In this document: piece by piece, positions 43,501 to 64,000 of the stretch
Layout of the letters: each line of letters starts with the position of its first letter
Position numbering within the stretch: the stretch's first letter is position 1
From: a virus
Virus record (IMG/VR): IMGVR_UViG_3300040801_003053
Span: 6,977 to 70,976 of that record
Length of the DNA: 64,000 nt
Reading direction: 5' to 3' (one strand)
Notes under the pieces: generated by a model
Told to the model about the DNA's origin: nothing
What the model saw: only the letters and a program-made list of their open reading frames with translations
Databases searched by the model: none
Program-made: the position numbers and the translations under genes

Positions 43501-46500
43501 AAGCTTTGCCATTCAAGATCTTTACCGGGCTGTTGGTGAAGATGCTGTCGGCTATGCTTTAGGGTCTACAGTTTATATTGAACCAAACCAATGGGAACAA
43601 GATGACCTTTTTATGCATGAGTTTTCGCATATCTATTATGCGACAATGAAAGACACTCAAGAAGTGGAGGAAATTTTAAAAGCGGCCAGGGCCGATGAAA
43701 ACTTCAGAAAATCCGTAGAGCAAGCTTATTGGGCTGATGTTATGTACAGGGCAACCAAGCCTATACCTCTTCTGAATCTTGCCAAAGGGGATCTGATTAA
43801 TGTCGGGGCCGTAGGAGCAAACCTTAAAGTCACCGATCCTGAAACCTTCAACAAGAAAATAAGCATCATCATGAAGCGTTTGGAGAAGCTTCCGGACAGT
43901 GAACAGGAAGTAATCAATGATGAGCTTTTTGCCAATTACTTACAAGGAAAGCTATCCAAGGAATTCAATAAATTCTTTGATCCTAAAAAAGAACCTATGC
44001 GTCAGCGTCTGACCCGGAACTTCTGGAATACGCTGAAAAGGAAAAGCAACGAAAACGATGCTAAATACGTGGTTGAAAGCGGAACGAATTACAAGACCGC
44101 TAATCCAGATGAACAGGTCGCTTACGACACCATTGTCAGAACATTCAAAGACACTTTGAAAATGAGGGGAACGACAGTGGCCGGTAGGCGAGCTGTCTCT
44201 CTGGAAAAATATGAGGGCATCCAAGACGCGGCTTTGGCAGCTGTCCATAACTGGGAGAAGGCTGAAATGAATATGGATCTCAAAGAGCCATACCAAGACG
44301 AGCTTGATGAGAACACTCAAGAAGATGTTGGTATTGACGGTTATGACTGGGACAAGACCTTTGAGCGTATAAGCAACAAGGCTCGAAAGATCCTCAATAG
44401 CTTCATCAAACGATACAAACAAAATCTCAGAGCGGAGCAGGAAGCAGAAGCCAAAGAGAAAAACCTACCTGTCCGACACCGTAACATTGAGGAGAGGCAT
44501 TTTGTTAGCTTAATAATGAACTCTGCCCGAGAGGAGGAAAATCCTTTTGTGTGGTCCGCTAAGGTCATGAATCCAAATACGGAGAATCATGTACTTAAAA
44601 AGTTTCAGGAATACATGAAACAAACTTATGGATCAAACCGAGGGCCTATTCTTAGAAGCATGCATAAGATCTACAATAATCAGATCACATTGCAGACCGT
44701 CTTTGGTCATACTGATTCTAATGGAAATACAGACTTCCTTTCTGGAACATCTTATAAAGACATGAGTCAGGTTAATTGGATGAGCACTCAGTTTATTGAC
44801 AATCTTGATGAGCATCCTACTCTGCCCGGTCTTGTAGAACGTATTCGCAGTGGTCGCGGAACCGATGAGGATTATAAGTCCGTCATTCAGATCGCAACAG
44901 AATCTACTTCTTATGTTTTTGCTGACGAGATCATTGGTGGGAATACTGTCAATTTCCAAAATGGGAAAACAGATATTAAAACATTCCTTGACCATTACCT
45001 GGGCATGGAAGACGTTTCTGATGGTGTTGCTGAAATGATGATGAATATTGTTACAACAAATGCTATTTATTCCTCAGATGCAGTAGTACGAAGCGTCAAA
45101 GAAGATAAAAATGGATTCTCCGATTATACCGCTTCCAAGCACCTCAGAAATGCTTTGTTCTCAAGCTTTGAGGAAATGCAAAACGACTTGAAGCAGGGAA
45201 TGTCCAAGAGAGCTTTCTTGAACAAGTACACGAATATGACTTCCAATGAAGGCAAGTATCGTGTAAAAGCCAGGAATGAGCTGACCGAGTTCATATATGA
45301 CAATTACCAGAACAACAATTTGCTCCCTGATATCTCTCTTTACCTTGGTGATATTAATGATCGTCAAAATAAAAATGTTTCCTACAAGGACACCGATGCC
45401 GAATCACTGTATGTTAGTGACGTGATCCGTTTCCTGAAAGGGGATAACGCGTATTTGTCTCCATTGAACACAATGGGCGAATCTAAGCGTAGCATGATGA
45501 CGATGATGCCCAAGTATGAGGCAGGCACAGAAAAGGCGCGTACAGCCCTTAAAAGAGCTTATCAGGCTTATGTGATGACTCCGGGAGATAAAGACATCAA
45601 AAGCTTACAGGAATGGAGTAAGGGTGTTCAAGATTCCATCAATCAAGAAGTTGCCTATTTCCAAGCGCACAGCGAAGTGTACATGGAGTACAATGATTTT
45701 ATCAATCCGGAAAATGAAAATGAAGGTCTTTACAATTCTCGAGGTGTACTCACTTCTTACGGGAAAAGACGCATTGCGGATTATGTGACTTCAACGATTA
45801 TCAACAAAGCTTTTGTTCACGAATTGCTTACGCCAACGACAGAAGTCAAAGATATTGTCAAGCGGAATAAAATGAACAACTCTCCGTTTATGCGCCTTTC
45901 TCACAAACTCAAGTTTGAGAACGTGCCTATGCCAGCGGAGTTTGTTGACGCAATCAATGAGCTTGGAGAGCAAAACGATTCCGGTCAGTACATAACCGAT
46001 GTGACTGCAGCTCGTATTGAAGAAGCCAGTAGAGGTGTCCTGAATTTGAACAAAGGATACAAGATGGTCAACAACCATATTGAAAGAGACAATCCTAATT
46101 TTCGAGGACGCAAGCTGGGATTGAAAGGGTATGTGACCATTCTCTCTGCAGAGCAAGTAGAGAAGTTTCCTGCCCTCAAGCCAATCTACGACTTGCTGAA
46201 TAAGCGTCAAGAACGTTTTGATGCCTACGCAAAAGAAAATGGAGTCAGCACTGATGATGTTCTTGAGCATCCGGAAACCGCCATGGACTACATAGCCATT
46301 GCCTCTCCTGTAAGCTCTGAAAAGCAAAACTTCTACAACAAGGAGCAGCTTGACACGATCAACAATGCCACACTTGAAGCCTTAGCTGATCCTGAGAACA
46401 TGAAAGCTTATGAAGAGTTTCTCGATGGTATGTACTACGATGAGAACGGAGAGTTTATGGGTCTTTCTGGAAACAACTTTGGACCACAAATGCGGATGGA

Positions 46501-49500
46501 TGAGGACAAGCGAAAAGCTAAAATACCTGTCCAGATGCGAAGCGCCATTATGGTCAATGCCGGAATATTTGACAACATTGCCGAAGCTGAAGAGGTGCTG
46601 AGCAAGTATAACAGTGCGGCCAATATCATGCTTCAAGAGAATCTTCTTGCTGACATTATGCATAAAGGGGTTATCAAAAACGATGTAGAGCTTGCCAAAT
46701 TTATTTTGAAAAACTCTAACCCGGATGAGATCAATCCACGCGACAAGCGATTGTTGGAAGTTAAAAACGCAAGCATTCATAACCCTTGGCTTTCTCAGAC
46801 AGCCCGTAACCTGGTTAAAAACCTGATCATTAAAAATGGAAACAACCTGCAAGGGCCGGGAACCATTGCTCAGCAAAAATCAGAAGTAGCCGGCAAGCAA
46901 GTTGAGAAAGGCAAGCCCTCTATGCCGCTAGAGTTTTACCGTGAAGCAAATGGTAAGGTTCTACCTATGGAAGGGATACTTCCTGCCTACATGAAAGATA
47001 TGGGTGTTCGCAAAAGGAAATATGCTCCTTTAGAAGAAGTGCGAATCGACCTTCTTTCTTCAAGAAAACTCCAAGAGGAGTTTGGAATCAAAGGGCGTGA
47101 GCAAGTAGAGCAATTCATCAAAGATCACAGTTTTGAATTTGATGGTAAAATGAAGTACTACATTCCTGGAGAGAATGTACTTGCCACTCGTGTGCCTAGC
47201 TCCGGGCCTTCTTTTACAGGCGTGATGGAAGCCGTAGATTTTGACACTACGGGAGCCTCTAACGTCATGATACCAACCAAATTTAAAGAAACGATCGGTT
47301 CTGATGACGATGGGGATCAGCTCTTCATAAGCATACGGGACAAAGGAAATCGTATTGGTGCCATGGAGTACAATGAGTTTTTTGACTCAGCTGTTAAGAA
47401 ATGGCTTACTCGGGAGATGCAAACCACCCTGACAACCAAACTCGATGATTCCAGAGAAGTCAACAGGATCATAGAGGGCATGACGATAAAAGGCAAGCGT
47501 GAAAATCCAATGCCTTTCTCTCCTGCCTGGGCTAAAAAGAATCATAATGACGCTCTCGGTGCCAGCCAGACGGTAGGTATTGCTTTTAATCTGCACAGGA
47601 TATTCAATAGCGTTGCCGCCTATAAAACTCCACTTAGGAGAGTTGACCGACAAGGAAGCTCTTACGACATGAGCATCGGCATCAATGGTCAGGTAGAAAA
47701 TCAATTCAATGATAACGAACAAGGTGTAAAATCGCGTATCCATAAATCCAACACAATTACACAAATTGTATTGGACAGCTCTAAAAATGGCCACACAGAA
47801 GCGTTAGGGTTCAGCAAGAACTCTATCGGATACGCGATGATTCTCACCAACCTCGGGTTTGACCTGGGAACAGTAGGAGAATTTTTAAACCACCCAACAA
47901 CCAAAGAGTATGTTGCTCGTATCGCCTCAAAAGACAACCTCTACGCTCCTTATGAGCATGAGTATGGGGTATTGAAGCAAATGGTCAAGAAAGTCGATCG
48001 TAACCAAGCTATGAGCGATCTCTATACAGGGGGCAATATTGACTTGAATAATGACTCCAAAGAAACCAAGATCAAGATACTTGGTCTTTTGGACTACATG
48101 AATAAAATTCATGCAGACATTGAGAAAGTCAACAAAGTGATGAAAGGACACAAAGAGATCTCTCCGGATCCTTTCGTTGTTGAAAAGCAAATGCAAGAAT
48201 ATCGGGACCTGGTATCAAACAAAGGAGCGACAACCTTGCTGTTTTCAGATGAGTTTTCTGTCAACCCGGAAGCCGAAGGGTACCTGTCCAGCATGAAACA
48301 CACCCAAGACATTGTTGGTAAGATGAGTATTGAATACTCTCCTGCCAACAGAGAGATCTACAATGAGGTGGCAAGAAGTGTATTCCAAGGATTTGGTAAG
48401 GACTACAATTCCAAGCTTGTTGGTGACTATCTTAAAATCTACAACGAAGCAAAATATTGGAACATCAATAACAAGTACACCCGTTCTGAATTAACCCGAT
48501 TGATTGCTCCAAAAGATTTCAATAATGAAGCCGTTCCCGGATCAGCTATAAAATCATTTGAGGATCTGGTCAATGAAATGCTTGAGCAAACAAGTCCAAG
48601 CACCGAAAATGCAGAGCTTGAAAACACGGCATTCCACAAGAATAAATTTTTGAACCTGGTACAGGCATTTGGTGTTGAGAATGACATGTTCAATGAAAGC
48701 TTAGGCTTTGAGATCAAAACAACTCCTTATGCTCGCTCGAACTCATTAAGTCAAGAAGAGATTCAGGACGTTGCCAAATCCTTTGATGAATTGCCGGCAG
48801 ACTTCAAAGAAAAGATTCTTGTCGCTGACCTGGTACTCAATGGGTGGAAAGGGAACAATTCTATATTCCCGTTTTTGCCTGACTATGTGATTGAATCAAT
48901 CAATGAGAATGCAGGGCGCATTGCACGCGATCAGTCCACTCCAAGCAGAGAGAAGATTGAACAAGTCCGAAACACAATCATTAATTTGATGATGTCCCGG
49001 AATGCAGGAGCCTTTAAAAATGTCAACATTAATGTTCCTGTCTTAAAAGACGCTCCACCGCCAACAAGCAAAATGGTAGCCAATGAAATTGCAAATGAGC
49101 TTGGCCGGGATCCGTCTTTCTTTGAAAATATTGCAAAAAAGAAAGATGACAAGGCAGTGCCTGTCCTTTATTATAAACTAAATCGCAGAGGCAATGATGG
49201 TCAAAAAGTTGATGCAGGCCAACTATTTATCAAAGTAACCGGTATTGATCCAGTTACTGATAAAGTCGTACAGAAGTATGATATAAACAAGGGTCGCACA
49301 CAGGGCCAGTTAGGAGTTTCTAAATACAAGAAAAGACAGATCACTTTGGCGAAACTTGTTGAAGAGGGAAGAATTGAAGTAATCTCTCCAGAACCAACAA
49401 GCCCTAAAAATATTGACCTGCTTGTAATTCCGGATGAAGGCACCAAAATGCCTACCCCTGAATGGACTCAAAAAAAAAAGTTTAATCAGAAGTTAGGTCG

Positions 49501-51817
49501 AGCTGCCAGAGCAGACCTGGAGAGTTTCACCTCAGATCGCAAGCTTACTCCAGAGGAATACATGGACGCACAGCAGTTCCGCTATGGTGTCGATTCCGTT
49601 AAACGAAACATGATGTATCAGCGTTATCTTAAAGACAAGGATAACGCTAATGCATTGGCTCAGGGAGAGTACCGCAAAGAGAAGATCCTCAAAATGAAGC
49701 CTGATCAGCTTTTAGAAGTCTACAAGGAGTTTGCTAAAAAAGACATCTACGCCTACAGCAATATTATCGTTCCTGTCCTGGAAAGGATTACTCACTTCGC
49801 GATTAATGAACAACAGGAGCTTACAGGTGTTCAAGAAGGTATGAAAGACATCAGTGTGCTTAAAGCTTACTTGCAGACCAACAATATAGACTCCTCTCAT
49901 CCCGGCACTCAATACGCTCAAAGAATGCTGGAAGGACAGTACAAGTCTTTTATCAATGAGAAGAAGCAATTCACCAAAAGGATCAATGAGGCCACAAACA
50001 ATCTCTACAATGAGAAGTTCAACGATCAGCGGTCCTCAATTCCTTTCTTTAATAGGCTGACCCGAGCCGCTATTGTCGCTTTCACTCCAAGAAATACCAT
50101 GTATGAGAAATTGTATGGTAACCTGGTAAAGATTGACAAAAGAGAGCGATCTGACGGCACAATATTCAGGGCCTATAAAATGCATTCTCCCGAAGTGCTT
50201 AAGGCCAAGTACCTCAAGAAGCAGATCTCTAAATCGGAATACGAATTTGCCCAGGTGTTTCAAGACACCATAAGCAAGCTTTCATTTACCGACAAAAAGG
50301 ATTTTGAGACAGGTGGATTTGTTCCTGCCGTTGCCATGAACCGGATGGAGAAATTTGCCACTCGTGGACTTCTTGGACTGTTCAGCTCATCCAGAACACA
50401 GGATGAAGCCATGATGAATGTTAAGATGAATTTCCGGGGAAACACAGTTAGCTTTAAAGAGATTGAAGATTACTTCCGGAGTACGGCAAAGAACAATTAC
50501 AAAAACATTAAAGAATACGTCACACTCAAAGCCAAGGCGATCAAGCTGGTGAACCAAGGCAAAAATGAAGATGGAAGCATGCTGGTCACAACCGCTGTAT
50601 CTACCAAAACATTGATGGGCGATGGTGTCATGGAGCGATTCAAGGAAGGAAAGTTTATCAATGAGAATGAGCTTGTAAGCATGGACTTGAATAAGGCTCT
50701 ACATGACTTTGTTCACGCCTCTATGTTTTCTCATGGCTATGGAGACTTTAAAGGCTTTGTAGGGCTTCAGTCGGTCATTGACGGCTTACTTATCCATAAC
50801 CGAAAAAAAGGATTTGAGAATCAAAATAAATTTGTTCAGCGCGTAATGAAAGATGGATTTCTGACGGGCAATATACGCAAGAATGAATCCATGGCTGATA
50901 AGACCTTAAATGGATTGATCAGGGCCAACCTCTTGTACATATTGGGGTACAAGGCTTTGATACTACAGCATGGAGCATATGCTATCAACAACCTTGTTGT
51001 GGGTAAATACCACAATATAAAAAATGAAGGTGGCCGAGCTTGGATAACCGGAGAGAAGCGTTATTGGGGGGTAAGTGCTGACTCCGGTTTCGGTCATCGT
51101 AAAGCAAATGGGATCCTCAAGAATTTGAATTACATGACTTTCAACGTCTATGACGAAGTTCCTTTGGAAAACAAACATGGATTGGACGATATATTTTCAG
51201 ACATTGCTTTGATGCCTATGACAGCGTCTGAAAACTGGACTCAAAAAGTACATTACTTGGGCCTATTGACAGATGAAGAATGGAAAAAGTTTGACCGTGA
51301 CGGAGACTACCTTCCGGGCGTAGAGAAAATTTCAAACCAACGACTTCTTGAAATCGAAGAAGAAGTTAAAACGGCACATGGTAAAGGCTACCAGGTGATA
51401 GATCAGCGCATGATACAAACGTACAGTTGGGGTCGTGCAATCATGCAGTTCGCTCGATTTATTCCAACGATGGTATATGACCGCTTTGCTCCTGAAGATG
51501 TCAATATCTATGGACAAAAGCATGTCGGCTCATTACGCAAGACCTGGCAGGTAATCCATGAAGCCATGAGCGGAAACATGAGCGTTAAAGAATTCGCCGC
51601 TTACAGGAAGTCCTTGCCCGCCCACGAACGTAAAGCTCTTGACCAAGGACTCCGAGGAATGGGCCTTACCACGGCAGCCGCTTTCTTAGGGGTACTTGCT
51701 AATTCAGAGATAGCCACGGAGCTTGTAGGTGATTCAAACTACCTAATGAATCCAGACAAGATGCAATGGAAAATTGTACCGAGCCTGGTCAATACAACAA
51801 AACAAATAATTTTGTGA
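40532..51817 (+). CDS. Virion-packaged two-barrel RNA polymerase polyprotein with zincin-like domain
   Basis: 3761 aa; R-x-P (TRVPSSG) followed by the DxDGD catalytic motif GSDDDGDQLF (47303-47317); HEFSH plus downstream ELFA zincin motif (43616-43630); crAss-like position. Confidence 0.85.
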   Translation: MGIIDDARMGIDPIKEKAQQDANSSMAQTTNVGEQDFKERRKDERIAAQETPTSQGMESLQGPQEGVIDPEVTQRGWAEEFGHSLVRGFGKQVIGGTGDVIQAIHGIIDEDAIEGNLASRWLQEAGNSIAEGHENYLSEDFRKHMEDNAWSIKTFMEPEFWSNDVAEGIPMLLEMIFLSKGISGLAKKGALNVVKKVGKKGVRDVAGLTGKGIDQTIGAAKLGEFGAGAVDMAAGGVTMNMYAGLMNSAELVNMHKNDVDENGNPLYTNAELSQMAATSFTNNMAYLPVDALSWGLTYGNAGRAVMKGMKGVLSKPGQLLKGPAESLTSSAKMFAQTVKPMANVLKKRILPLSKPAAEGLEETFQESFEEWAKLKAKEKSGIYDSSLQENVGEFMDFYNSKENQHTKAVSMALGMLGGAGSNVANSARNMVNRINEEAEKNFKYYDKAELLKNVYTDSDMKEAQMEAVHDMMLNDMYHDGKVNMVYIEDLHEKEAIDDEVYKELKNKATAIEDNWGKAELMNVRGKMAYGKAKMQQVHITEHMAKLNEEFSDKRAEILQGPASDQTKETQIKKYEQERDQGLQAAQEALAVNAAVQESLLSGDQNGIKPLQSKFVTNEDGNEELINGLTPELYNEFYTKTDEEVLNELKKNRVQRTASKVFGGFADQLTNAREREVFKNIFTKVKDGAKEMADKAGINVEAAEDNNQQSKGDQAKETTTLTPNAEKGGVDEGKTTIERQEPKPISGLTGDQNWAELVQNAEYEKELDSITDQMTEAGISDPDITVAINKKRESLQNGTETPQAPDGEQGAGNAQDGATTGNKNTKAGQRDLKEVQSEEGTAEGSDRKSTSIATPARRIVKMANKGGTSGFEELNEKDTTIVEQIVKSEKFKRTPVERIAKIVRAAGFIGTEDDVVLDYVKNKVGPNYVGRASRAKTPTGRMYFRDIKNQTDHDTWVNSALAELEFGYSTMSKVMVHNQYLRKLFPGTYIKSFAIQDLYRAVGEDAVGYALGSTVYIEPNQWEQDDLFMHEFSHIYYATMKDTQEVEEILKAARADENFRKSVEQAYWADVMYRATKPIPLLNLAKGDLINVGAVGANLKVTDPETFNKKISIIMKRLEKLPDSEQEVINDELFANYLQGKLSKEFNKFFDPKKEPMRQRLTRNFWNTLKRKSNENDAKYVVESGTNYKTANPDEQVAYDTIVRTFKDTLKMRGTTVAGRRAVSLEKYEGIQDAALAAVHNWEKAEMNMDLKEPYQDELDENTQEDVGIDGYDWDKTFERISNKARKILNSFIKRYKQNLRAEQEAEAKEKNLPVRHRNIEERHFVSLIMNSAREEENPFVWSAKVMNPNTENHVLKKFQEYMKQTYGSNRGPILRSMHKIYNNQITLQTVFGHTDSNGNTDFLSGTSYKDMSQVNWMSTQFIDNLDEHPTLPGLVERIRSGRGTDEDYKSVIQIATESTSYVFADEIIGGNTVNFQNGKTDIKTFLDHYLGMEDVSDGVAEMMMNIVTTNAIYSSDAVVRSVKEDKNGFSDYTASKHLRNALFSSFEEMQNDLKQGMSKRAFLNKYTNMTSNEGKYRVKARNELTEFIYDNYQNNNLLPDISLYLGDINDRQNKNVSYKDTDAESLYVSDVIRFLKGDNAYLSPLNTMGESKRSMMTMMPKYEAGTEKARTALKRAYQAYVMTPGDKDIKSLQEWSKGVQDSINQEVAYFQAHSEVYMEYNDFINPENENEGLYNSRGVLTSYGKRRIADYVTSTIINKAFVHELLTPTTEVKDIVKRNKMNNSPFMRLSHKLKFENVPMPAEFVDAINELGEQNDSGQYITDVTAARIEEASRGVLNLNKGYKMVNNHIERDNPNFRGRKLGLKGYVTILSAEQVEKFPALKPIYDLLNKRQERFDAYAKENGVSTDDVLEHPETAMDYIAIASPVSSEKQNFYNKEQLDTINNATLEALADPENMKAYEEFLDGMYYDENGEFMGLSGNNFGPQMRMDEDKRKAKIPVQMRSAIMVNAGIFDNIAEAEEVLSKYNSAANIMLQENLLADIMHKGVIKNDVELAKFILKNSNPDEINPRDKRLLEVKNASIHNPWLSQTARNLVKNLIIKNGNNLQGPGTIAQQKSEVAGKQVEKGKPSMPLEFYREANGKVLPMEGILPAYMKDMGVRKRKYAPLEEVRIDLLSSRKLQEEFGIKGREQVEQFIKDHSFEFDGKMKYYIPGENVLATRVPSSGPSFTGVMEAVDFDTTGASNVMIPTKFKETIGSDDDGDQLFISIRDKGNRIGAMEYNEFFDSAVKKWLTREMQTTLTTKLDDSREVNRIIEGMTIKGKRENPMPFSPAWAKKNHNDALGASQTVGIAFNLHRIFNSVAAYKTPLRRVDRQGSSYDMSIGINGQVENQFNDNEQGVKSRIHKSNTITQIVLDSSKNGHTEALGFSKNSIGYAMILTNLGFDLGTVGEFLNHPTTKEYVARIASKDNLYAPYEHEYGVLKQMVKKVDRNQAMSDLYTGGNIDLNNDSKETKIKILGLLDYMNKIHADIEKVNKVMKGHKEISPDPFVVEKQMQEYRDLVSNKGATTLLFSDEFSVNPEAEGYLSSMKHTQDIVGKMSIEYSPANREIYNEVARSVFQGFGKDYNSKLVGDYLKIYNEAKYWNINNKYTRSELTRLIAPKDFNNEAVPGSAIKSFEDLVNEMLEQTSPSTENAELENTAFHKNKFLNLVQAFGVENDMFNESLGFEIKTTPYARSNSLSQEEIQDVAKSFDELPADFKEKILVADLVLNGWKGNNSIFPFLPDYVIESINENAGRIARDQSTPSREKIEQVRNTIINLMMSRNAGAFKNVNINVPVLKDAPPPTSKMVANEIANELGRDPSFFENIAKKKDDKAVPVLYYKLNRRGNDGQKVDAGQLFIKVTGIDPVTDKVVQKYDINKGRTQGQLGVSKYKKRQITLAKLVEEGRIEVISPEPTSPKNIDLLVIPDEGTKMPTPEWTQKKKFNQKLGRAARADLESFTSDRKLTPEEYMDAQQFRYGVDSVKRNMMYQRYLKDKDNANALAQGEYRKEKILKMKPDQLLEVYKEFAKKDIYAYSNIIVPVLERITHFAINEQQELTGVQEGMKDISVLKAYLQTNNIDSSHPGTQYAQRMLEGQYKSFINEKKQFTKRINEATNNLYNEKFNDQRSSIPFFNRLTRAAIVAFTPRNTMYEKLYGNLVKIDKRERSDGTIFRAYKMHSPEVLKAKYLKKQISKSEYEFAQVFQDTISKLSFTDKKDFETGGFVPAVAMNRMEKFATRGLLGLFSSSRTQDEAMMNVKMNFRGNTVSFKEIEDYFRSTAKNNYKNIKEYVTLKAKAIKLVNQGKNEDGSMLVTTAVSTKTLMGDGVMERFKEGKFINENELVSMDLNKALHDFVHASMFSHGYGDFKGFVGLQSVIDGLLIHNRKKGFENQNKFVQRVMKDGFLTGNIRKNESMADKTLNGLIRANLLYILGYKALILQHGAYAINNLVVGKYHNIKNEGGRAWITGEKRYWGVSADSGFGHRKANGILKNLNYMTFNVYDEVPLENKHGLDDIFSDIALMPMTASENWTQKVHYLGLLTDEEWKKFDRDGDYLPGVEKISNQRLLEIEEEVKTAHGKGYQVIDQRMIQTYSWGRAIMQFARFIPTMVYDRFAPEDVNIYGQKHVGSLRKTWQVIHEAMSGNMSVKEFAAYRKSLPAHERKALDQGLRGMGLTTAAAFLGVLANSEIATELVGDSNYLMNPDKMQWKIVPSLVNTTKQIIL

Positions 51818-53213: not shown

Positions 53214-53258
53214 CATCGCTTAAAAACTAATTTATGATAACAAAATTACTCTTATGAG
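53182..53258 (-). ncRNA. Candidate ~77-nt small RNA antisense to translation-initiation regions
   Basis: Bounded by a TATATTTG promoter element (53263-53270) and the terminator; contains CATAAATTAGTTTTTAAG, complementary to the Ubl start region. Confidence 0.5.
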
Positions 53259-56910: not shown

Positions 56911-57747
56911 TCAAATGTTTTTAAGGGTGTTTATTAAAGTGAATGCTTCTGCGTATTTTTCTTTGAACCAATCTCCGCGAGGAATAAGCAATCGAACTAA
57001 CGAATACATTTCATTGAATGTATCCAGTCCTACACGAGGACCAAGCTTGTCAATGTAAATCTCGAGAGCTTTTTCAAGATGAAGATGTACAGGCAAAGTA
57101 TCAAAATCTTTTTCATAAGCTTTGATTCCATAACGAAAAAGTCCAGGTATTCCGTCTGTAGGATCTCCAATCATGACTTGCTTGATGAGATTCCTCATAC
57201 CTTGCTCTTGCGTAATTAAGGAAAAAGACTCACTTGGAAAATCCCAATGCGTACCTGGTATCTGCTTTAAGTCTTTATCCTTAGAATAAATGAATGTTGA
57301 TTCATCTTGCAACATGGCGCATATATCATCTGCTTCCAATTCCGGAAACAGAAGATTATGCAGGCCTATACCTTCTTGAGCAAAGATGTATTCCACAACA
57401 CTTATCATATCCTTGAACATATCTGCGTATTCAGGTTCTTTATACTTTCGTTTGAACTTGTAACCTTTCTCTTGACAGATATAATTTCTGAATGTCTTAT
57501 GACGGCCTCCTGACCAGCAAAAGATTTTTGCTTTACAATCTACGCCGACAAGTATTTCGTCCAACATAGCTTGTGTTTCAGTCTGTATAGCTTCAATAGG
57601 TGTTGGGGAAGCATAAGTCGGTCGTGCATAATTTTGATGTATGCGATAAACAACAACGTTTTTAATGAAGTCTGCGTCAATAAGGGCGATTTTATTTGTG
57701 CTCTGCACGCCCTGTTGTTTTGGTTGAAATCTGAAATCGTTACTCAT
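56911..57747 (-). CDS. 5'-3' exonuclease (T7 gp6/T5-type FEN fold)
   Basis: LIDAD, GYKFKR, ELEADD, SKDKDLKQIPG, GDPTDGIPG. Confidence 0.85.
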   Translation of the reverse strand: MSNDFRFQPKQQGVQSTNKIALIDADFIKNVVVYRIHQNYARPTYASPTPIEAIQTETQAMLDEILVGVDCKAKIFCWSGGRHKTFRNYICQEKGYKFKRKYKEPEYADMFKDMISVVEYIFAQEGIGLHNLLFPELEADDICAMLQDESTFIYSKDKDLKQIPGTHWDFPSESFSLITQEQGMRNLIKQVMIGDPTDGIPGLFRYGIKAYEKDFDTLPVHLHLEKALEIYIDKLGPRVGLDTFNEMYSLVRLLIPRGDWFKEKYAEAFTLINTLKNI

Positions 57748-57943
57748 TTTGTTTCCATGCTGTGATCATCATTTTGATCGTTAATATTATGCCGATAGGA
57801 CCCAATGCCATATCGACGGCTAATACCCACCAGGGCATTTCTGGAGTTTTTACTGTTTCTTTAACTCCATAGATTTGCGTTGCATATTTGTGGTAAAGGT
57901 GAACCGCTATTCCACAAGCGATCCATAAGATGAAGTATATCAT
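57740..57943 (-). CDS. Small membrane protein
   Basis: Two hydrophobic stretches. Confidence 0.55.
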   Translation of the reverse strand: MIYFILWIACGIAVHLYHKYATQIYGVKETVKTPEMPWWVLAVDMALGPIGIILTIKMMITAWKQNE

Positions 57944-58128
57944 ATATCGTTATTAAAAGTTTTGATCTCATTACTGTCCTCTTTGTCCTTTTCTTCGGTT
58001 GCAAAAAACAAAGCCAAAAAGGCTAATGCTGTGATCGTTTGCAAGGTCTTTATTTCAATTCTATTACGACTCCAGATCCTTGCTATCTGGGAGAGCGCAA
58101 TCACTACTTTGACATTTCTAAGCAACAT
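57940..58128 (-). CDS. Small hypothetical membrane protein
   Basis: One hydrophobic stretch; overlaps its neighbours. Confidence 0.45.
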   Translation of the reverse strand: MLLRNVKVVIALSQIARIWSRNRIEIKTLQTITALAFLALFFATEEKDKEDSNEIKTFNNDI

Positions 58129-58531
58129 TTAATATTGTTTTGCCTTGTTCATTCTTTGTAAGATTAAGTTGCAAATCAAAGTCATCATTAAAACGCATGA
58201 TTGACTGATCAATGAAGTCGCTGAATTCCTTGGTGGAATATTCAGCAAAATCCTTGAACACATAACCTTGATCTGTTACTTTGAGTAAGCGAATATCGGT
58301 CAGATGACTAAGCACCTCTCTGACGCTGCTTCCTGTCGTGTCAGCCACTTTCTCCAATATCATGTAGAAAAGCTTGACTTGACCTTCAGAAGCGTCCCTG
58401 GTGGCTTGTTTGATCTCTATCTGAAATCGCTTATGAGTATTTTCGCACTTCTGCACGAACATCCTATAACTATCTTTATAGGCTGATGAGGGAACGAACT
58501 CCCCTGCAATGAATTTACCTTCAAATAACAT
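58118..58531 (-). CDS. NinB-like recombination protein
   Basis: Q-x-KLFY...TG-x-SVREV...YSTKEFSDFID pattern. Confidence 0.6.
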   Translation of the reverse strand: MLFEGKFIAGEFVPSSAYKDSYRMFVQKCENTHKRFQIEIKQATRDASEGQVKLFYMILEKVADTTGSSVREVLSHLTDIRLLKVTDQGYVFKDFAEYSTKEFSDFIDQSIMRFNDDFDLQLNLTKNEQGKTILNVA

Positions 58532-58533
58532 AT

Positions 58534-58562
58534 AAAAAAAGGGGCCTCGTTAAAGACCCCTT
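58534..58562 (-). terminator. Intrinsic terminator after the SSB-like gene
   Basis: GGGGTCTT-TAAC-GAGGCCCC then T7 on the minus strand. Confidence 0.75.
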
Positions 58563-58572
58563 GAATTAAATT

Positions 58573-59364
58573 CTACATGAATGATCCGGGGCTTGGAATA
58601 TTGCCTGCCCCCTCTGTCAGGTCATTGCCTCCTCCCAATGGATTCGTAGGCGCTTCCTCTTTGGGTGCCTGCGGAGCCTCTTCAGTTTCCTCTGGCTTCA
58701 AGTAAGGTTTTCCTCCAGCTTCAAGAAACGCTCTACCCTCTTTGGAATCGAGAATTTGCTCTCTAAGTCCTTTTCGATCAGGATTCGGTGATGGTTTAAA
58801 TTCACCGAATAAAGGGCTTTTAAAGCACTCTCCTGCATCGTCAATAGCAAAACCGTACACGTCGTTCTTTGGAACTGCCTGATCCCATGGAACACCTTTG
58901 TACATGGCATTGTTTTGAAGTTCGGGAGTAACCATGATTGCACTGTTGACATTTTCCCAAACTCCGTTACCATCAGATTTCTGAGTATGGCCTACCTGAA
59001 CAATAAACTTCTTGCCTAGGAATTGTCCAATGTCAAAAGTTGAATACTCACTTTTGTTGAGTTTCCTTCCAATAGCTCCGGTGATGAATTTGTGCAACAA
59101 ACTGTTATCGCTGATAATGTTGTTGTACTTAGCCCATAACCATGCTGGCTTTTCTTCTTCACCGTCGTTATACTGGTGCAATTCAAATGGCAATTCAAAA
59201 ACAAATTTGAGTTGAGGTTTCCAACCTTCTCCATAAGCGTTTTTGACATATTGGCTTCCCATATCAATGATACGGACGAGGATGGCTACATGAGGCCCTG
59301 CTGAAATTACGGGTCGACTTACTGAGGTTCCTCCTCTGGCTTTCATACTAAATGATTGTGACAT
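58573..59364 (-). CDS. Single-stranded DNA-binding protein-like (phage OB fold)
   Basis: AGPH-x-A...IIDMG-x-Q...FELP...FDI-x2-FLGK pattern; acidic/Pro-rich tail; own terminator. Confidence 0.55.
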   Translation of the reverse strand: MSQSFSMKARGGTSVSRPVISAGPHVAILVRIIDMGSQYVKNAYGEGWKPQLKFVFELPFELHQYNDGEEEKPAWLWAKYNNIISDNSLLHKFITGAIGRKLNKSEYSTFDIGQFLGKKFIVQVGHTQKSDGNGVWENVNSAIMVTPELQNNAMYKGVPWDQAVPKNDVYGFAIDDAGECFKSPLFGEFKPSPNPDRKGLREQILDSKEGRAFLEAGGKPYLKPEETEEAPQAPKEEAPTNPLGGGNDLTEGAGNIPSPGSFM

Positions 59365-59375
59365 AATGTTTGTGT

Positions 59376-59795
59376 TTAATTTGTGAATAATTTAAAAAAC
59401 TTGTGAAAATACTTTTTTGATTTACTGTGATAGTTCTGTCCAAAACGAATGTCTATATCGAACATGTTGTAAATCTTAACGCGTTTTACTTTTTGTTTGG
59501 GTATTAATGAATTCTGCTTGTTTATCTCATAGGCTACATGTGTAAAATAATCGGTTAATATATCGGTAACTACTTCTTCGCTAAAGCCAACCGATTCAGA
59601 GACTTCCTGAATGTGTATTTTAAATCGTGGATGATTAAATACATTTTCATTCAGAAAATCTCTAGCCTCGGAAGGGGAACAAAAATCTAATTTTGAGTTG
59701 TCTCGTACAATACTCTCATAGGGTGAGAGCTTTAAATGATCGAAAAAGGGATTAAATTCTTTTTCGTATTTATTCTTTTTGACTTGATCCATCAT
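59376..59795 (-). CDS. Protein with C-terminal HU/IHF-like fold
   Basis: IQEVSESVGFSEEVVTDILTDYF...RVKIYNMFDI; ATG 59795. Confidence 0.45.
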   Translation of the reverse strand: MMDQVKKNKYEKEFNPFFDHLKLSPYESIVRDNSKLDFCSPSEARDFLNENVFNHPRFKIHIQEVSESVGFSEEVVTDILTDYFTHVAYEINKQNSLIPKQKVKRVKIYNMFDIDIRFGQNYHSKSKKYFHKFFKLFTN

Positions 59796-60078
59796 AAACA
59801 GTTTTTTCTCGAAGCTTACTGGCGAGATTCTGGCTCGGCTTAAAGTAAAGGCGGTAAGATGCCTCTTGCACTTCTTTTTGTCTTGTCGCGATGTTAAACC
59901 TTTCTTGTTTTTTGCTGATACGCAATTCAAACTTCCCCACATTGTTTATAGCAATCTCCTGCCCGAAAAGAATCTTGTCACGCATGGTTTGCTCTACGTG
60001 CATGAGAACTTTTCGGACATTTGATTTTGCTATGCCTGTCTTACTGGATATGTCTTTATCTAAATCTTTAAAATTCAT
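59770..60078 (-). CDS. HU/IHF family DNA-binding protein
   Basis: MNFKDL...I-x-I-x2-VGKF...RFN-x2-T...F-x-PS-x2-L. Confidence 0.85.
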   Translation of the reverse strand: MNFKDLDKDISSKTGIAKSNVRKVLMHVEQTMRDKILFGQEIAINNVGKFELRISKKQERFNIATRQKEVQEASYRLYFKPSQNLASKLREKTVYDGSSQKE

Positions 60079-60095
60079 ACTGGTTATTTTTTAAA

Positions 60096-60127
60096 CAAAT
60101 ATAATCAAATAATCCGTTCACAGCGAA
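60096..60127 (-). promoter_or_regulatory. Bacteroidota-type promoter for the HU operon
   Basis: TTCG-N20-TATATTTG on the minus strand, about 17 nt before ATG 60078. Confidence 0.65.
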
Positions 60128-60134
60128 GAAAATG

Positions 60135-61484
60135 CTAAATTACATAAGAGTAAGGATCGATCGAAAGTGAAATAGGATTTACTTTAAGTGTCGTTCCACC
60201 AACGCCAATGTCACGACCTTTGCCCAAATTGAACTCGACTTTCCACATATCATTAGGCGGTACGCTTGCGTTCGCGCTCTTGAGCGTATAATACGCTTCT
60301 CTGTATGGGAAGAGTACAATGTCTGCATCTTCTTCGATGGAACTACTTTCTTTGAGATCCGATAATCGAGGTCTTTTATTGTCACGCTCTTCAACTTTAC
60401 GACTCAATTGCGACAATGCCATAACAGGTATATTGTTGTCCTTGGCAATGCTTTTCAACTCACGGGTAATATATGTGATCCCCTGCCTTAAATCGTGTCC
60501 AGGATAACTACACCTCTGGATATAATCTACGACGATTAAATCACAAAGCCCTTCCTTCCTCAGCTCTTTCGTTTTGAGAGAAATGTCATCAATATGTTTC
60601 AAATCACCAATAATCGTGAATGAGCTTTGGTCCATTTGTTCAGAAAACTTTGTAACCTTAGCCAATTCTTCTGCCGTTAACTTACCGGATTTAATTTTGT
60701 TGTAATTAACTCCAGTTTCCTTGGCTATGATTTTACTGCGTAATTGAAAGACGGGCATCTCTAAAGAGAAAAAGACAACGGCATGACCTCGCTTGTGGCA
60801 TTCCCATGCCGTAATTAAAGCCACCGTTGTTTTAAGCATACCTGGTCGGCCTGCAACAATAATAAGCTCACCGAATTGCATACCTCCTTGTAGAAGTTGA
60901 TCAAATTCGAGAGATCCTGTTGGCAATGCAGTATGTTCTCCGGACAGATGCTTTTTATAACGATCCGTAATTTGAGCAACATAGTCTTTTTCAGAATTGT
61001 TTTGAATGTCTTTTGTAAATCGATCAATGAGTTTTTTATACCCCCTCAGAATATTATCTGACACGGTAAAAACATCCATTCCTTTCCAATCAATAGCTTG
61101 GATTTTGGAACTTACATCTACCCAATGTCTGATAATAACAAACTCTTTAAACTTCAAGATATGATGCTCCAAATGTGCTGTTGTAGCAACAAATTGAGTC
61201 AGATCTACAAGCTTAAATTGCCATTGGCCTGCCAGCCAATCAGGCAATGCCTGGGGTTTAAATTCATTCACCGAAACAATATCAACCTTGACTCCTGCTT
61301 CATAGCATTTGAGAATACTGGTAAATACAAAACGGTGAAACATATCGGAAAAGTCTTTGGCTTCTATGTTGTGACGAAGGACGAGAGCTTTAACCTCGTC
61401 CCTGTCATCAACAAGAAGTGATCCAATGATTGACTTCTCCAGATTATGCATAAACTCATGATCATAATCTGCGATATAATTCAT
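60135..61484 (-). CDS. dnaB: Replicative DNA helicase (DnaB family)
   Basis: N-terminal DnaB domain, FSLEMP, IVVDYIQ, ALSQLSR, SDLKESSSIEEDAD, KGR finger; variant P-loop GRPGMLKT. Confidence 0.9.
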   Translation of the reverse strand: MNYIADYDHEFMHNLEKSIIGSLLVDDRDEVKALVLRHNIEAKDFSDMFHRFVFTSILKCYEAGVKVDIVSVNEFKPQALPDWLAGQWQFKLVDLTQFVATTAHLEHHILKFKEFVIIRHWVDVSSKIQAIDWKGMDVFTVSDNILRGYKKLIDRFTKDIQNNSEKDYVAQITDRYKKHLSGEHTALPTGSLEFDQLLQGGMQFGELIIVAGRPGMLKTTVALITAWECHKRGHAVVFFSLEMPVFQLRSKIIAKETGVNYNKIKSGKLTAEELAKVTKFSEQMDQSSFTIIGDLKHIDDISLKTKELRKEGLCDLIVVDYIQRCSYPGHDLRQGITYITRELKSIAKDNNIPVMALSQLSRKVEERDNKRPRLSDLKESSSIEEDADIVLFPYREAYYTLKSANASVPPNDMWKVEFNLGKGRDIGVGGTTLKVNPISLSIDPYSYVI

Positions 61485-61500
61485 GGAAGTAATTTAAAAA

Positions 61501-61707
61501 TTATCCTTTTGTGCCCACTTTACTATTAAAAGAATAAATAGCTTTATCGTCTGCAATCTCTGGGCCTGTGATTGTCGCGTTGACCAATTCAGGATATTCC
61601 TCTGAATAAAAGTCAGCTACTTGCTTGGGTGATAACTCAGTATTCGGATCCGTCAATTCTTTGTTTCGGAATTTGAATACTCGGGTATGCATAATTACGT
61701 TTGACAT
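61501..61707 (-). CDS. Ubiquitin-like protein, PRTRC system protein C type
   Basis: L-x-DPN-x-ELSP-x-QV-x-DFYS-x2-YPEL-x-NA-x-I-x-GPE...VGTKG with terminal Gly. Confidence 0.85.
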   Translation of the reverse strand: MSNVIMHTRVFKFRNKELTDPNTELSPKQVADFYSEEYPELVNATITGPEIADDKAIYSFNSKVGTKG

Positions 61708-61717
61708 AAATTAGTTT

Positions 61718-62788
61718 TTAAGAGTTAAACATGTCGATTTGATCCTCGTCAGGATCGCTGAAAGCGTTTTTAGCTGCGCTTGCCCAGTCTTGAGGATCCG
61801 GAGCGGGAATACCCTCTAACGGGTTTTCTTTCTTCTCTGTTTCCACTTCTGGACTTGTAGGTAAATTATAAGGAAAAGCATCTTCTTCTGGTTTTTCAGG
61901 TTCTTTCTTGCTTGGGCATCCCGGGAGTTGACAGAAATCAGCATTGTGCCACTTCAAATCTTTGTCACACATTTTACAGCGATTTTCTGATTCAGGCAAA
62001 TCTACAGCTTTTGGTTTTTCCGGGTCAGTAATGTCTGTAACCTTTATATCAGTTACTTCAGAGACTGGTGACTTGTCACAATTATCGTCAATATTTGTGA
62101 CAGATTCCATTTCCTTGACAATCTCATCATTGTTCTCCAATGACTTTTTGATCTTGTCAGCTGGTGACCCACTATGCGGTTGCTCAACGGATGCCATTTG
62201 TATGGTTTTATCTGTTGCATGATGCTCTTGGAAAGAATCTTTTATCTGCTCTTGCTGTTCAGGACTTATTGGCCCCGGTGTTCCTACAATCAAATTCTCT
62301 TTAGGAATCCCTGATTTTCCAATGATGCTTTCTTTGAGCTTCTCCGTAGAACTCTTAGGAGCCTCTGGAGCCTCTTTTACAGGCTCAGGCTTCTTTTCTT
62401 CCTTTTTTGGAGTATTACTACCTTGGGCGAAGAGATCGTTCTTTGGAGCTTCTTTTTTCTTTACAGGTTTTTTCTTGGCCTGTTTACCTTTCTCATTGCC
62501 TTTCTCTTTTTTCTCTTGCTCAATTTTCTCGAGTTGTTTGTTGATGAATTCAATTTGATTGATTCGATTCTTTTGACTTTTGTATGTAGAATCAAGAATC
62601 TGTTCGAGGTCTTGAGAGCAAGCCTGCAAGGAAGTGTTAATTACCGAAAAAGGAATCAGGCTCCCTGCCTTATCGTCATCCGGATTGATGGACTTCATGA
62701 TCACATCAATACGAAACTTCTCATTTTCCTTTTTGATCCTTAAAGAAACAACGGCAATGGATAAATAATTTTCAATGGATTTTAACAT
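61718..62788 (-). CDS. PRTRC system protein E-like
   Basis: N-terminal domain (...SLIPFSV...SQDL), long Pro/Glu/Lys-rich linker, Cys4 cluster, terminal QIDMF; directly upstream of Ubl as in PRTRC loci. Confidence 0.65.
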   Translation of the reverse strand: MLKSIENYLSIAVVSLRIKKENEKFRIDVIMKSINPDDDKAGSLIPFSVINTSLQACSQDLEQILDSTYKSQKNRINQIEFINKQLEKIEQEKKEKGNEKGKQAKKKPVKKKEAPKNDLFAQGSNTPKKEEKKPEPVKEAPEAPKSSTEKLKESIIGKSGIPKENLIVGTPGPISPEQQEQIKDSFQEHHATDKTIQMASVEQPHSGSPADKIKKSLENNDEIVKEMESVTNIDDNCDKSPVSEVTDIKVTDITDPEKPKAVDLPESENRCKMCDKDLKWHNADFCQLPGCPSKKEPEKPEEDAFPYNLPTSPEVETEKKENPLEGIPAPDPQDWASAAKNAFSDPDEDQIDMFNS

Positions 62789-62824
62789 AAATCTGGTTTT
62801 TAAAAAATGGGATTAAATTTACAA

Positions 62825-63085
62825 TTATTCTTGGTCATCTACAATGTCATGACTGATAAGTTCGTTTTTCTGATCATTATATATTTTCAGAAAATCTTGC
62901 ATTTTGTACGAATGCGTTGCTAATTTTTCAGCAAGCAAGTATGTGTACTGGTTATCAGCATCGTCAAATACTTCTTTACACATATTGAACATCCTGATAG
63001 CCATTTCATGTCGGATACAGGCTATGCGATCTTGGAATACTTCTCCATCTGATGCCTTATAGGCTTCAATTACTTCTATTTGCAT
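62825..63085 (-). CDS. Hypothetical protein within the Ubl cassette (86 aa)
   Basis: ORF between the E1 and protein E genes. Confidence 0.6.
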   Translation of the reverse strand: MQIEVIEAYKASDGEVFQDRIACIRHEMAIRMFNMCKEVFDDADNQYTYLLAEKLATHSYKMQDFLKIYNDQKNELISHDIVDDQE

Positions 63086-63086
63086 T

Positions 63087-63767
63087 TTATCGGGTTTTAA
63101 AATTCATTGTTTTTAAGTCAAACCATATTTCCTTGTGAGGTGTTTGACCCTTGATCATGAGTTGTGAGATCATATGAATAACAAGTGATGCCACAATGCG
63201 GTTTACACTAAAAGATTGCTCTTGCAGGCTCTCATAAGCCGAGCAAGAGACTTTCTGATTATCGACAAGGGTAGGGAATTTCTCTATTATCGTCAGTTCT
63301 TCTTGCCCTTTTAAAGCCATACATACTTGACCATAATCTTCTCCATTCCCTGTATCAATCCAATGATTGAAAATACCTTTCCGAAAATCATTGTTTAAGA
63401 CTTTTCTGGTATCAACATTATCAACACATGAGATTAAAAAGTCTGAGGCCGGTCTTTGGTCCACATACATTTCTGCATTGGCTTCAATCTGCGTACCAAA
63501 AGCGTATCCAATACGTTCTGCAAGCACATCAACTTTATAACGACCAATATCGCTTTCCACATAACCTTCTTGCTTGCCGACATTATGAGGCATAATCGTA
63601 TCGTTGTCGTAAACAGATATGTTGAATCCTTTATTGTCAAGCTGAATCCATGATTGCTCAAGCTGTACCAGATCTCGTAAAACTATTGATCCGGTAGCTC
63701 CGGCTCCAATGACTATAAACTTAACGCGGTGACGGTTATCAATTAATCGCTGATTCAGGTATATCAT
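63087..63767 (-). CDS. E1-like ThiF/MoeB enzyme, PRTRC type
   Basis: GAGATG nucleotide-binding loop, D-x-D...N-x-GKQ, K78, CVDN, WID-x-GN...GQV, S-C175-S...EQS-x2-VN. Confidence 0.85.
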   Translation of the reverse strand: MIYLNQRLIDNRHRVKFIVIGAGATGSIVLRDLVQLEQSWIQLDNKGFNISVYDNDTIMPHNVGKQEGYVESDIGRYKVDVLAERIGYAFGTQIEANAEMYVDQRPASDFLISCVDNVDTRKVLNNDFRKGIFNHWIDTGNGEDYGQVCMALKGQEELTIIEKFPTLVDNQKVSCSAYESLQEQSFSVNRIVASLVIHMISQLMIKGQTPHKEIWFDLKTMNFKTR

Positions 63768-64000
63768 TTATCAAAGAATTTAATGAGGTTGAACTTTTAT
63801 ATAATTTTTTGGGAATGGAAAGACCTTTCTTAATGCTTTCTTGTAAAATAAATTCAGGGCTTTTTTTACCATTCAAGCATTCCGTATTCATAAAAGCATT
63901 CCAATCAGAATTGAAAACAGCTTTTTCCGCATTAACCATAAGTTTTTGATAATCGGCATTGAAATAATCACTTGGTTTCATGTTGCCCCAACACATTTTG
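63739..64000 (-). CDS. E2-like protein, PRTRC system protein B type (5'-truncated by the window edge)
   Basis: Open frame to the window end; KMCWGN resembles the E2 family D active-site Cys; followed by E-x-A-x-F-x-S-x-W; overlaps the E1 start. Confidence 0.6.
   Translation of the reverse strand, partial: KMCWGNMKPSDYFNADYQKLMVNAEKAVFNSDWNAFMNTECLNGKKSPEFILQESIKKGLSIPKKLYKSSTSLNSLINDIPESAIN

Follow-up and report, generated by a model that had tools for sequence, protein, structure and literature searches.

A PRTRC-type cassette coupled to a phage dnaB gene

The stretch of DNA analysed here (the window, 64,000 nucleotides) spans positions 6977-70976 of the uncultured-phage contig IMGVR_UViG_3300040801_003053, a 75,553-bp IMG/VR virus record with an estimated completeness of 95%; we added both ends of the record to the analysis. 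At one edge of the window, on the minus strand, we identified genes for a ubiquitin-like protein (Ubl), an E1, an E2 and a protein E-like product, resembling the PRTRC (ParB-related, ThiF-related) cassettes (NCBIfam TIGR03734-03742) that correspond to operon class 6d of Iyer, Burroughs and Aravind (2006; PMC1779556). Such cassettes are widespread on plasmids, integrative and conjugative elements (ICEs) and phages. The gene calls are based on an open reading frame (ORF) list covering window positions 57,000-64,000, and the block reads as follows in the direction of transcription:

63739 to beyond 64000 (window edge), minus strand: E2, PRTRC protein B / Prok-E2_D family, containing KMCWGN
L002:4716-5420, reaching window-equivalent 64443, minus strand: the full E2 ORF, 234 amino acids, with the catalytic Cys151 in PNVYGTNKMCWGN
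63087-63767, minus strand: E1, ThiF family, PRTRC type, 226 amino acids, overlapping the E2 stop by 29 nt and containing VIGAGATGS and VSC175S
62825-63085, minus strand: ORF of 86 amino acids, function unassigned, between the E1 and protein E genes
61718-62788, minus strand: protein E-like, 356 amino acids, directly upstream of the Ubl gene
61501-61707, minus strand: Ubl, Prok_Ub / PRTRC protein C, 68 amino acids, ending VGTKG and then a stop codon
60135-61484, minus strand: DnaB replicative helicase (DnaB_C 210.8 bits; TIGR00665 258 bits)
59770-60078, minus strand: HU-type DNA-binding protein (Bac_DNA_binding 48.9 bits), the next gene of the same operon

The cassette order is 315aa-B-ThiF-86aa-E-C on the minus strand, followed by dnaB, with 315aa and 86aa standing for ORFs of those lengths. 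Reading the junction directly, we found the dnaB ATG at 61484, exactly 16 nt past the Ubl stop codon. The other cassette genes overlap or lie 1-36 nt apart, all cassette ORFs are intact and tightly coupled, and no terminator-like site was found between them; promoter and terminator scans gave results at chance level. An initial annotation of the window had named the KMCWGN, GAGATG, S-C175-S and VGTKG motifs and had placed dnaB directly downstream of the cassette at a distance of 16 nt, and we recovered each of these features at the expected position. Searches of Pfam, NCBIfam, PHROGs and PADLOC yielded no significant match for the 86-residue ORF, which also does not resemble the small ORF of another cassette (L006).

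E1, E2 and Ubl belong to PRTRC families and keep their catalytic residues

The Ubl scored 83.8 bits against Prok_Ub (PF14454; cut-off 25) and 71.7 bits against PRTRC_C (TIGR03738; cut-off 45.95), and a leave-one-out hidden Markov model (HMM) built from the other loci recovered it with 87 bits. Its identity to protein C of Parabacteroides and Manganitrophus plasmids is 50-52%, 52% being the maximum to any copy, and the family profile terminates exactly at the last residue of the Ubl, Gly68. E1 reached 57.1 bits with Pfam ThiF (cut-off 28.1), 169 bits with the leave-one-out HMM, and 136 bits with PRTRC_ThiF (TIGR03736), slightly below the equivalog cut-off of 144.75 and with the next-best NCBIfam model at 31. 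For the E2, the corresponding scores were 48.7 bits with Prok-E2_D (PF14460; cut-off 25), 57.5 bits with the leave-one-out HMM and 36.9 bits with PRTRC_B (TIGR03737; cut-off 131). Identity to any other cassette copy is at most 33% for E1 and 29% for E2. The initial annotation had assigned all four proteins to PRTRC families; this holds for Ubl, E1 and E2, which exceed their Pfam cut-offs, and is weak for protein E, which stays below its NCBIfam cut-off with only 20.2 bits.

Alignments of E1 with its homologues (A1 and A4) show GxGxxG, D54/D56, N62, K78, D116, R121 and S174-C175 to be invariant; in the NxxRQ motif, the Arg is replaced by Lys in this protein. The E2 retains the PN...C-x-G-N core, in which Cys151 is invariant and the Gly and PN are conserved. 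Searched against the PDB, the PRTRC-ThiF profile (A1) matched the active adenylation domain of the eukaryotic ubiquitin E1, Uba1, best (49 bits), and Uba1, UBA6, NAE and UBA5 all ranked above ThiF (29 bits), Cap2 (25), MoeB (24) and BubCD (20). The profile is closest to Uba1 and therefore fits a protein-conjugating E1. Among solved structures, no sequence relative was found for the E2 or the Ubl, nor for the E1 when used as a single sequence.

The E1 is a member of the ThiF superfamily, and a ThiF of the cultured phage crAss001 is annotated as a thiamine biosynthesis protein, as a sulfur-carrier or small-molecule pathway would lead one to expect: a ThiF/ThiS-, MoeB/MoaD- or MccB-like system in which no protein is conjugated. 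We consider this highly improbable. The E1 scored 31 bits against adenyl_thiF (cut-off 275) and 13.6 bits against moeB (cut-off 376), and its partner is a Prok_Ub protein rather than ThiS or MoaD, so that we rejected a ThiF/ThiS or MoeB/MoaD pair as the identity of these genes. A Cys-bearing E2 is also present, and we found a rhodanese or sulfurtransferase domain in none of the cassette proteins.

A reduced gene set encoding a mature Ubl

We searched the whole contig with family HMMs, all of which gave matches in control genomes. The initial annotation had seen no ParB gene, and indeed ParB (PF02195) had no match anywhere in the 75.5 kb; neither did Prok-JAB (protein A, PF14464) or PRTRC_F (TIGR03742). 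The initial annotation had suggested that a JAB protease and protein F may lie past the window edge. This does not hold in the form foreseen: upstream of the E2 gene on the same strand lie an ORF of 315 residues that overlaps the E2 start, an ORF of 112 residues, ArdC, a RadC-type JAB and several small ORFs.

The 315-residue ORF occupies the position of protein F. Protein F of class 6d is described as alpha-helical and rapidly diverging (PMC1779556). An exhaustive phmmer search of 1.8 billion representative proteins with the 315-residue ORF returned only the self-match, pairwise BLAST found no similarity to the F-position proteins of seven cassettes, and a custom F HMM gave no match, so we rejected its identification as protein F. 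Its structure models are unusable (predicted local distance difference test score, pLDDT, of 0.37 in the ESM Atlas and 34.6 with AlphaFold2).

Translation of the Ubl gene already yields a product with a terminal Gly, and a processing peptidase therefore appears dispensable here. Other loci show the same association: a mature Ubl end (...G-COOH) is present in 7/7 cassettes that have no Prok-JAB (JAB-less) and a placeable end, an eighth JAB-less locus aligning only partly, while among JAB-bearing cassettes the Ubl carries a C-terminal extension in 53 and none in 6, all of these counts being phylogenetically non-independent.

The missing genes could alternatively mark the cassette as a decaying or rewired remnant that no longer conjugates and perhaps only adenylates or serves as a binding module. 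Prok-JAB, ParB and PRTRC_F were not found, and B, ThiF and E fall below their equivalog-level NCBIfam cut-offs. In addition, the E2 has Ala where most members have a His after the Cys, and a His C-terminal to the E2 Cys has been called absolutely conserved for class 6d (PMC1779556, Table 1 row 6d). The His is likewise absent from the E2s of loci L007, L010 and L011 and of the Manganitrophus plasmid, and since four other cassette E2s also lack it, we do not read its loss as inactivation. With ORFs intact and closely spaced, with the Cys, ATP-binding residues and terminal Gly conserved, and with JAB-less cassettes of the same features recurring in unrelated replicons, we judge a remnant improbable.

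The ArdC and RadC-type genes lie further upstream:

L002:6799-8117 (contig 72798-74116), minus strand: ArdC and RadC-type JAB, upstream of the cassette

ArdC (ArdcN 91.5 bits, MPTase-PolyVal 110 bits, PHROG anti-restriction family 230 bits) combines a single-stranded DNA-binding N-domain with a zincin peptidase, and the RadC-type JAB (130 bits), the only JAB of the contig, is encoded four genes upstream. ArdC/RadC pairs are typical of the leading regions of conjugative elements. None of the PRTRC cassettes in the other sampled loci is linked to ArdC or RadC, and we therefore rejected as unsupported the idea that RadC supplies the missing deconjugating peptidase.

The presence of ArdC and RadC on the same strand would suit a counter-defence or establishment module, in which the Ubl system and these upstream genes neutralise host defences early in infection, for instance by tagging defence proteins. 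E1/E2/Ubl systems such as Bil and Cap2 of the cyclic-oligonucleotide-based antiphage signalling system (CBASS) do act in phage-host conflict, according to PMC11601596. We nevertheless regard this as unlikely. ArdC and RadC are unlinked to the cassette at every other sampled locus, and plasmid cassettes adjoin ParB and replication genes rather than defence islands. Moreover, none of nine cassette proteins matched the ISG15-like/Bil models of PADLOC, and matches at the E1 level were weak (E1 at most 19.6 bits to E1-E2 models). This result gives no support to the earlier proposal that the phage jams host Ubl-based immunity.

A side observation concerns the start of the Ubl gene. An exact 18-nt repeat, CTTAAAAACTAATTTATG, occurs at window positions 53219-53236 (plus strand) and 61705-61722 (minus strand), with a chance expectation of 0. 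The copy at 61705-61722 takes in the stop codon of protein E together with the start codon of the Ubl gene. The copy at 53219-53236 lies in the gap between the convergent late (plus-strand) and early (minus-strand) blocks, where no ORF of at least 25 amino acids starts; minus-strand transcription across 53236-53219 would give an RNA complementary to the leader of the Ubl gene.

Relation to other PRTRC cassettes

A PRTRC-type ThiF profile matched 60 IMG/VR viral contigs, and an iterated-HMM survey of the retrieved loci showed that over 50 of these contigs follow the canonical order E-C-F-B-A-ThiF; most are 35-45 kb long, the size of temperate phages. The Ubl matches 233 plasmid records. Full PRTRC sets are also present on Ralstonia phage Dina (NC_055026, RefSeq annotation) and Burkholderia phage BgVeeders33, and a Phocaeicola vulgatus prophage with a PRTRC protein B is mentioned in a 2026 preprint. 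The occurrence of PRTRC on a phage is thus not new, given that RefSeq annotates the set of phage Dina and more than 50 IMG/VR contigs carry it in full. The initial annotation had presented the cassette as one that is not known to be described in crAss-like phages. We found no paper on such a cassette in these phages, in keeping with that view, but the broader novelty is reduced by these phage records and by the annotated ThiF of crAss001. Our literature searches found no paper linking PRTRC to a function, nor any linking crAss-like phages to ThiF or ubiquitin.

JAB-less cassettes recur on several replicons. Parabacteroides distasonis plasmid NZ_OY725769 encodes E (356 residues), C, a hypothetical protein, a 'prokaryotic E2 ligase family D' protein and a PRTRC ThiF. 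The 335-kb Pseudomonas aeruginosa megaplasmid NZ_CP096823 (L085) carries ParB-E-C-hypothetical-B-ThiF with dnaN 3.6 kb downstream, and the Ubl of this cassette matches 134 Pseudomonas plasmid records. Further JAB-less versions occur at IMG/VR loci L011 and L012, on a human-gut phage fragment (L069), and on a second crAss-like contig, L007, from an ENA metagenome, which bears an ORF of more than 4600 residues. At least 12 viral loci have a DnaB gene close to the cassette, and ParB adjoins canonical cassettes.

Compared with PRTRC/6d systems in general, the cassette of our window shares a Prok_Ub Ubl ending in GTKG, a Prok-E2_D protein with its Cys, a PRTRC-type ThiF with the SC motif, an E-like gene directly upstream of the Ubl gene, and a place among the replication genes of a mobile replicon. 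It differs in having no ParB, Prok-JAB or recognisable F, in its order (x-B-ThiF-x-E-C instead of E-C-F-B-A-ThiF), in an extra Cys4 cluster in E, in an E2 without the His, and in its direct coupling to dnaB. The Parabacteroides cassette is similar in lacking JAB, in a Ubl ending in GTKG (52% identity) and in its 356-residue E with an internal SLF-type motif, whereas its E2 keeps the His, its context is a plasmid or ICE, and its E1 and E2 are 24-25% identical to ours. Its order, E-C-x-B-ThiF, agrees with the initial description of our cassette as rearranged relative to the Bacteroidota layout. All other surveyed loci keep E-C-...-B-(A)-ThiF, and the order found here occurs in none of them.

Phages Dina and BgVeeders33 and the IMG/VR cassettes resemble our locus in carrying the same families on phages, often with DnaB nearby, but in the 35-45 kb carriers the E-C-F-B-A-ThiF set is complete and the Ubl is mostly a precursor with a C-terminal extension. 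Contig L007 is likewise a giant-ORF phage with a JAB-less E, a Ubl ending in Gly, two intervening ORFs, an E2 without the His and a ThiF in a replication module; its order is E-C-x-x-B-ThiF, its ThiF is 29% identical to ours, and there is no detectable similarity outside the cassette. Our cassette is the most stripped-down among those surveyed: its recognisable genes encode a Ubl, an E1, an E2 and an E-like protein, and we found neither a peptidase nor ParB nor a recognisable F. What sets it apart is this minimal set together with its permuted order, an ORFan where F would be expected, the Cys4 cluster of E, and direct coupling to dnaB in a distantly crAss-like phage with no recognisable polymerase.

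The size of most viral PRTRC carriers, 35-45 kb, is that of temperate phages, in which superinfection-exclusion genes are common. On this basis the cassette might be a weapon against competing mobile elements, tagging proteins of co-infecting phages or plasmids in a Bil-like manner. This too seems improbable for a phage in which a whole-contig HMM search found no tyrosine integrase, in which the cassette sits within the replication operon and not in a moron-like position, and whose cassette proteins show no detectable relation to Bil models.

With Bil, CBASS Cap2/Cap3 and Bub, the cassette shares the E1/E2/Ubl logic, and thioester chemistry would be expected as in Bil and Cap2. It has no E1-E2 fusion, and its E2, Ubl and E gave no PADLOC match; together with the E1-level scores above, this led us to reject membership in Bil or type II CBASS. 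In Bub (6E), according to PMC11601596, E1 and E2 lack the catalytic Cys and are accompanied by a DUF6527 serine protease. We rejected Bub as well, as both catalytic cysteines are present in the phage cassette and Pfam scans of the cassette proteins found no DUF6527.

In the cultured phage crAss001 (MH675552, 81394-83792; L089), the ThiF protein Gp76 (59.6 bits, annotated as thiamine biosynthesis) is encoded beside the metalloprotease-domain protein Gp77, near the primase in the replication module. crAss001, a Crassvirales phage, carries an E1-family gene within its replication module as our phage does, but it has no Prok-E2_D and its E1 is not detectably similar by tblastn, making it a different type of cassette. 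Behind the Gp76 annotation there is probably a different type of Ubl-activation system, and crAss-like replication modules seem to have acquired E1-type systems on more than one occasion.

Protein E ends in a peptide resembling beta-clamp-binding motifs

In protein E, an N-domain (residues 1-105) is followed by a Lys-rich linker with KNDLF at 115-119; further on come a CxxC-x11-C-x4-C cluster (271-291) and an acidic tail, which ends ...DEDQIDMFNS. The PRTRC_E score of 20.2 bits (TIGR03741; cut-off 37.95) spans the full model, and neither PF19556 nor the leave-one-out HMM gave a match. An AlphaFold2 prediction from a 20-sequence alignment (A5) was confident for residues 1-105 (pLDDT 81-96), lower around the Cys4 cluster (about 74), and below 60 for most of the remainder. 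Most of the protein beyond the N-domain is probably disordered, judging from this model, and both KNDLF and QIDMF lie in low-confidence stretches.

In Foldseek searches of the AlphaFold DB clusters, PRTRC protein E was among the top matches (probability 0.93-1.0), which speaks for compatibility and is not independent proof, because the multiple sequence alignment included E proteins. The predicted N-domain has an alpha/beta fold like that of double-stranded RNA-binding domains (dsRBDs), with dsRBDs and HPF matching at Z 6-8. Among solved structures, residues 1-76 (window 62561-62788, minus strand) matched T7 Gp1.2 best (Z 9.5, root-mean-square deviation 1.7 A over 71 residues, 8% identity). 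T7 Gp1.2 is a phage inhibitor of the host dGTPase; the predicted similarity may reflect just a shared small fold and gives no functional lead.

E proteins have hypervariable linkers, yet they nearly always end in TLDLF, GVDLY/GVDMY, GLDLPI or LDVW. Counting a loose pattern, [LIVMF][DENSQ][LIMV][FYW] or LxLP[ILV], in the last 8 residues, we found a clamp-like peptide in 52/56 E homologues compared with 2.1% of 2763 background ORFs; 50 of the 56 sequences form one related cluster, so these are not 52 independent events. An unguided MAFFT alignment places QIDMF of the phage protein E over LDLF, VDMY or LDLPI of the homologues. Bacteroidota-type E proteins bear SLF/DLF-type motifs such as GSLFG, PSLFG, DSLFAGVGP-COOH and TGLFKKGDK-COOH. 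Known beta-clamp-binding motifs include the pentapeptide QL[SD]LF (QADMF in DnaE) and the hexapeptide QLxLxL (QLSLPL in Hda), and the end peptides of protein E resemble them. A profile search with E across 5.8 billion proteins returned Ralstonia almost exclusively, and a scan of genome contigs yielded two full-length loci.

A distantly crAss-like phage with no recognisable polymerase or clamp gene

We traced the contig (G000:C1) to one sequencing run alone, a DNA run of a microbial mat, and nearly no words of the contig were present in the sister RNA runs. The terminase large subunit (TerL), portal and major head proteins match PHROG families, and TerL is 23-25% identical to those of crAss-like, Flavobacterium and Azobacteroides phages. 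A very large ORF lies downstream of the tail genes:

40532-51817, plus strand: giant ORF of 3761 amino acids, 3' of the tail genes, with DDDGD (DxDGD) at residue 2258

The DxDGD motif is a feature of crAss-like virion RNA polymerases. Neither a PHROG family nor the giant ORF of contig L007 showed similarity to the 3761-residue ORF. Typical Crassvirales members have larger genomes than the 75.5 kb of this phage. The initial annotation called the phage crAss-like; on these comparisons it is distantly so, through TerL, and not a clear Crassvirales member. Megablast against GenBank phages found no close relative, and a DnaB search of JGI metagenomes gave a single match, with 26% identity.

DnaB, HU and a 5'-3' exonuclease are all encoded on the contig, and whole-contig HMM searches found no family A (PolA) or family B (PolB) DNA polymerase and no beta clamp (DnaN). 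With no recognisable polymerase or clamp on the contig, the phage seems to rely on the replisome of its host.

A proposed role at replication forks

Our favoured reading, which we hold tentatively, is that the window encodes a reduced PRTRC/6d Ubl conjugation module that is transcribed with the early and replication genes and acts as follows. E1 would adenylate the free C-terminal Gly68 of the Ubl and hold the Ubl as a thioester on Cys175, then hand it to Cys151 of E2 for attachment to target lysines, with no processing peptidase required for a Ubl produced with its Gly end. Protein E would be an adaptor, or a first substrate through its Lys-rich linker, and would dock onto the host beta sliding clamp through the internal KNDLF and the C-terminal QIDMF. 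Tagging would then take place at replication forks while the phage helicase recruits the host replisome. Conjugation itself, the binding of E to the clamp and the identity of the target are steps that we infer.

A role at the replication fork is the best available reading because of the end motifs of protein E, the coupling to dnaB, the proximity of DnaB genes at the viral loci counted above, dnaN beside the Pseudomonas cassette, ParB at canonical cassettes, and the lack of a recognisable polymerase or clamp on the contig. The initial annotation had proposed Ubl conjugation to the replisome, for which the clamp-binding-like motifs of protein E offer indirect support. More specifically, protein E could be a clamp adaptor that brings the Ubl machine to forks, where a phage without its own polymerase would capture or remodel the host replisome by tagging it; this more detailed version is possible but doubtful.

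Several points weigh against these proposals. The assignment of protein E is, on profile scores, the weak element of the cassette, and the Foldseek and motif counts carry the limits given with them. Pseudomonas E ends in IAEQF and Parabacteroides E in MEMICC, which are poor clamp motifs, and an acidic tail with a hydrophobic end might instead imitate the C-terminus of SSB or serve to bind another protein of the cassette. The Ala that follows the E2 Cys and the ORFan in place of protein F both depart from the family pattern. IMG/VR searches with ThiF and DnaB found no relatives of the phage, the absence of the genes not found is unproven because the contig is estimated to be 95% complete, and the searchable literature contains no biochemical work on any PRTRC member.

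The occurrence of a stripped-down set joined to the helicase operon of a phage that apparently depends on host polymerase and clamp narrows the functional core of the family. If the clamp link is true, it would connect bacterial ubiquitin-like tagging to the DNA replication of mobile elements. A clamp-adaptor role for protein E would then explain for the first time how the PRTRC/6d family works, a question that dates from 2006, and this would be the first phage to employ a ubiquitin-like conjugation system of its own in DNA replication and not in defence. If the clamp link is false, the cassette is one more divergent member of a catalogued family.

One further gene of the contig lies amid small early ORFs:

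L003:1317-1850 (contig 1317-1850), minus strand: NUMOD4 + HNH_3 homing-endonuclease-like gene

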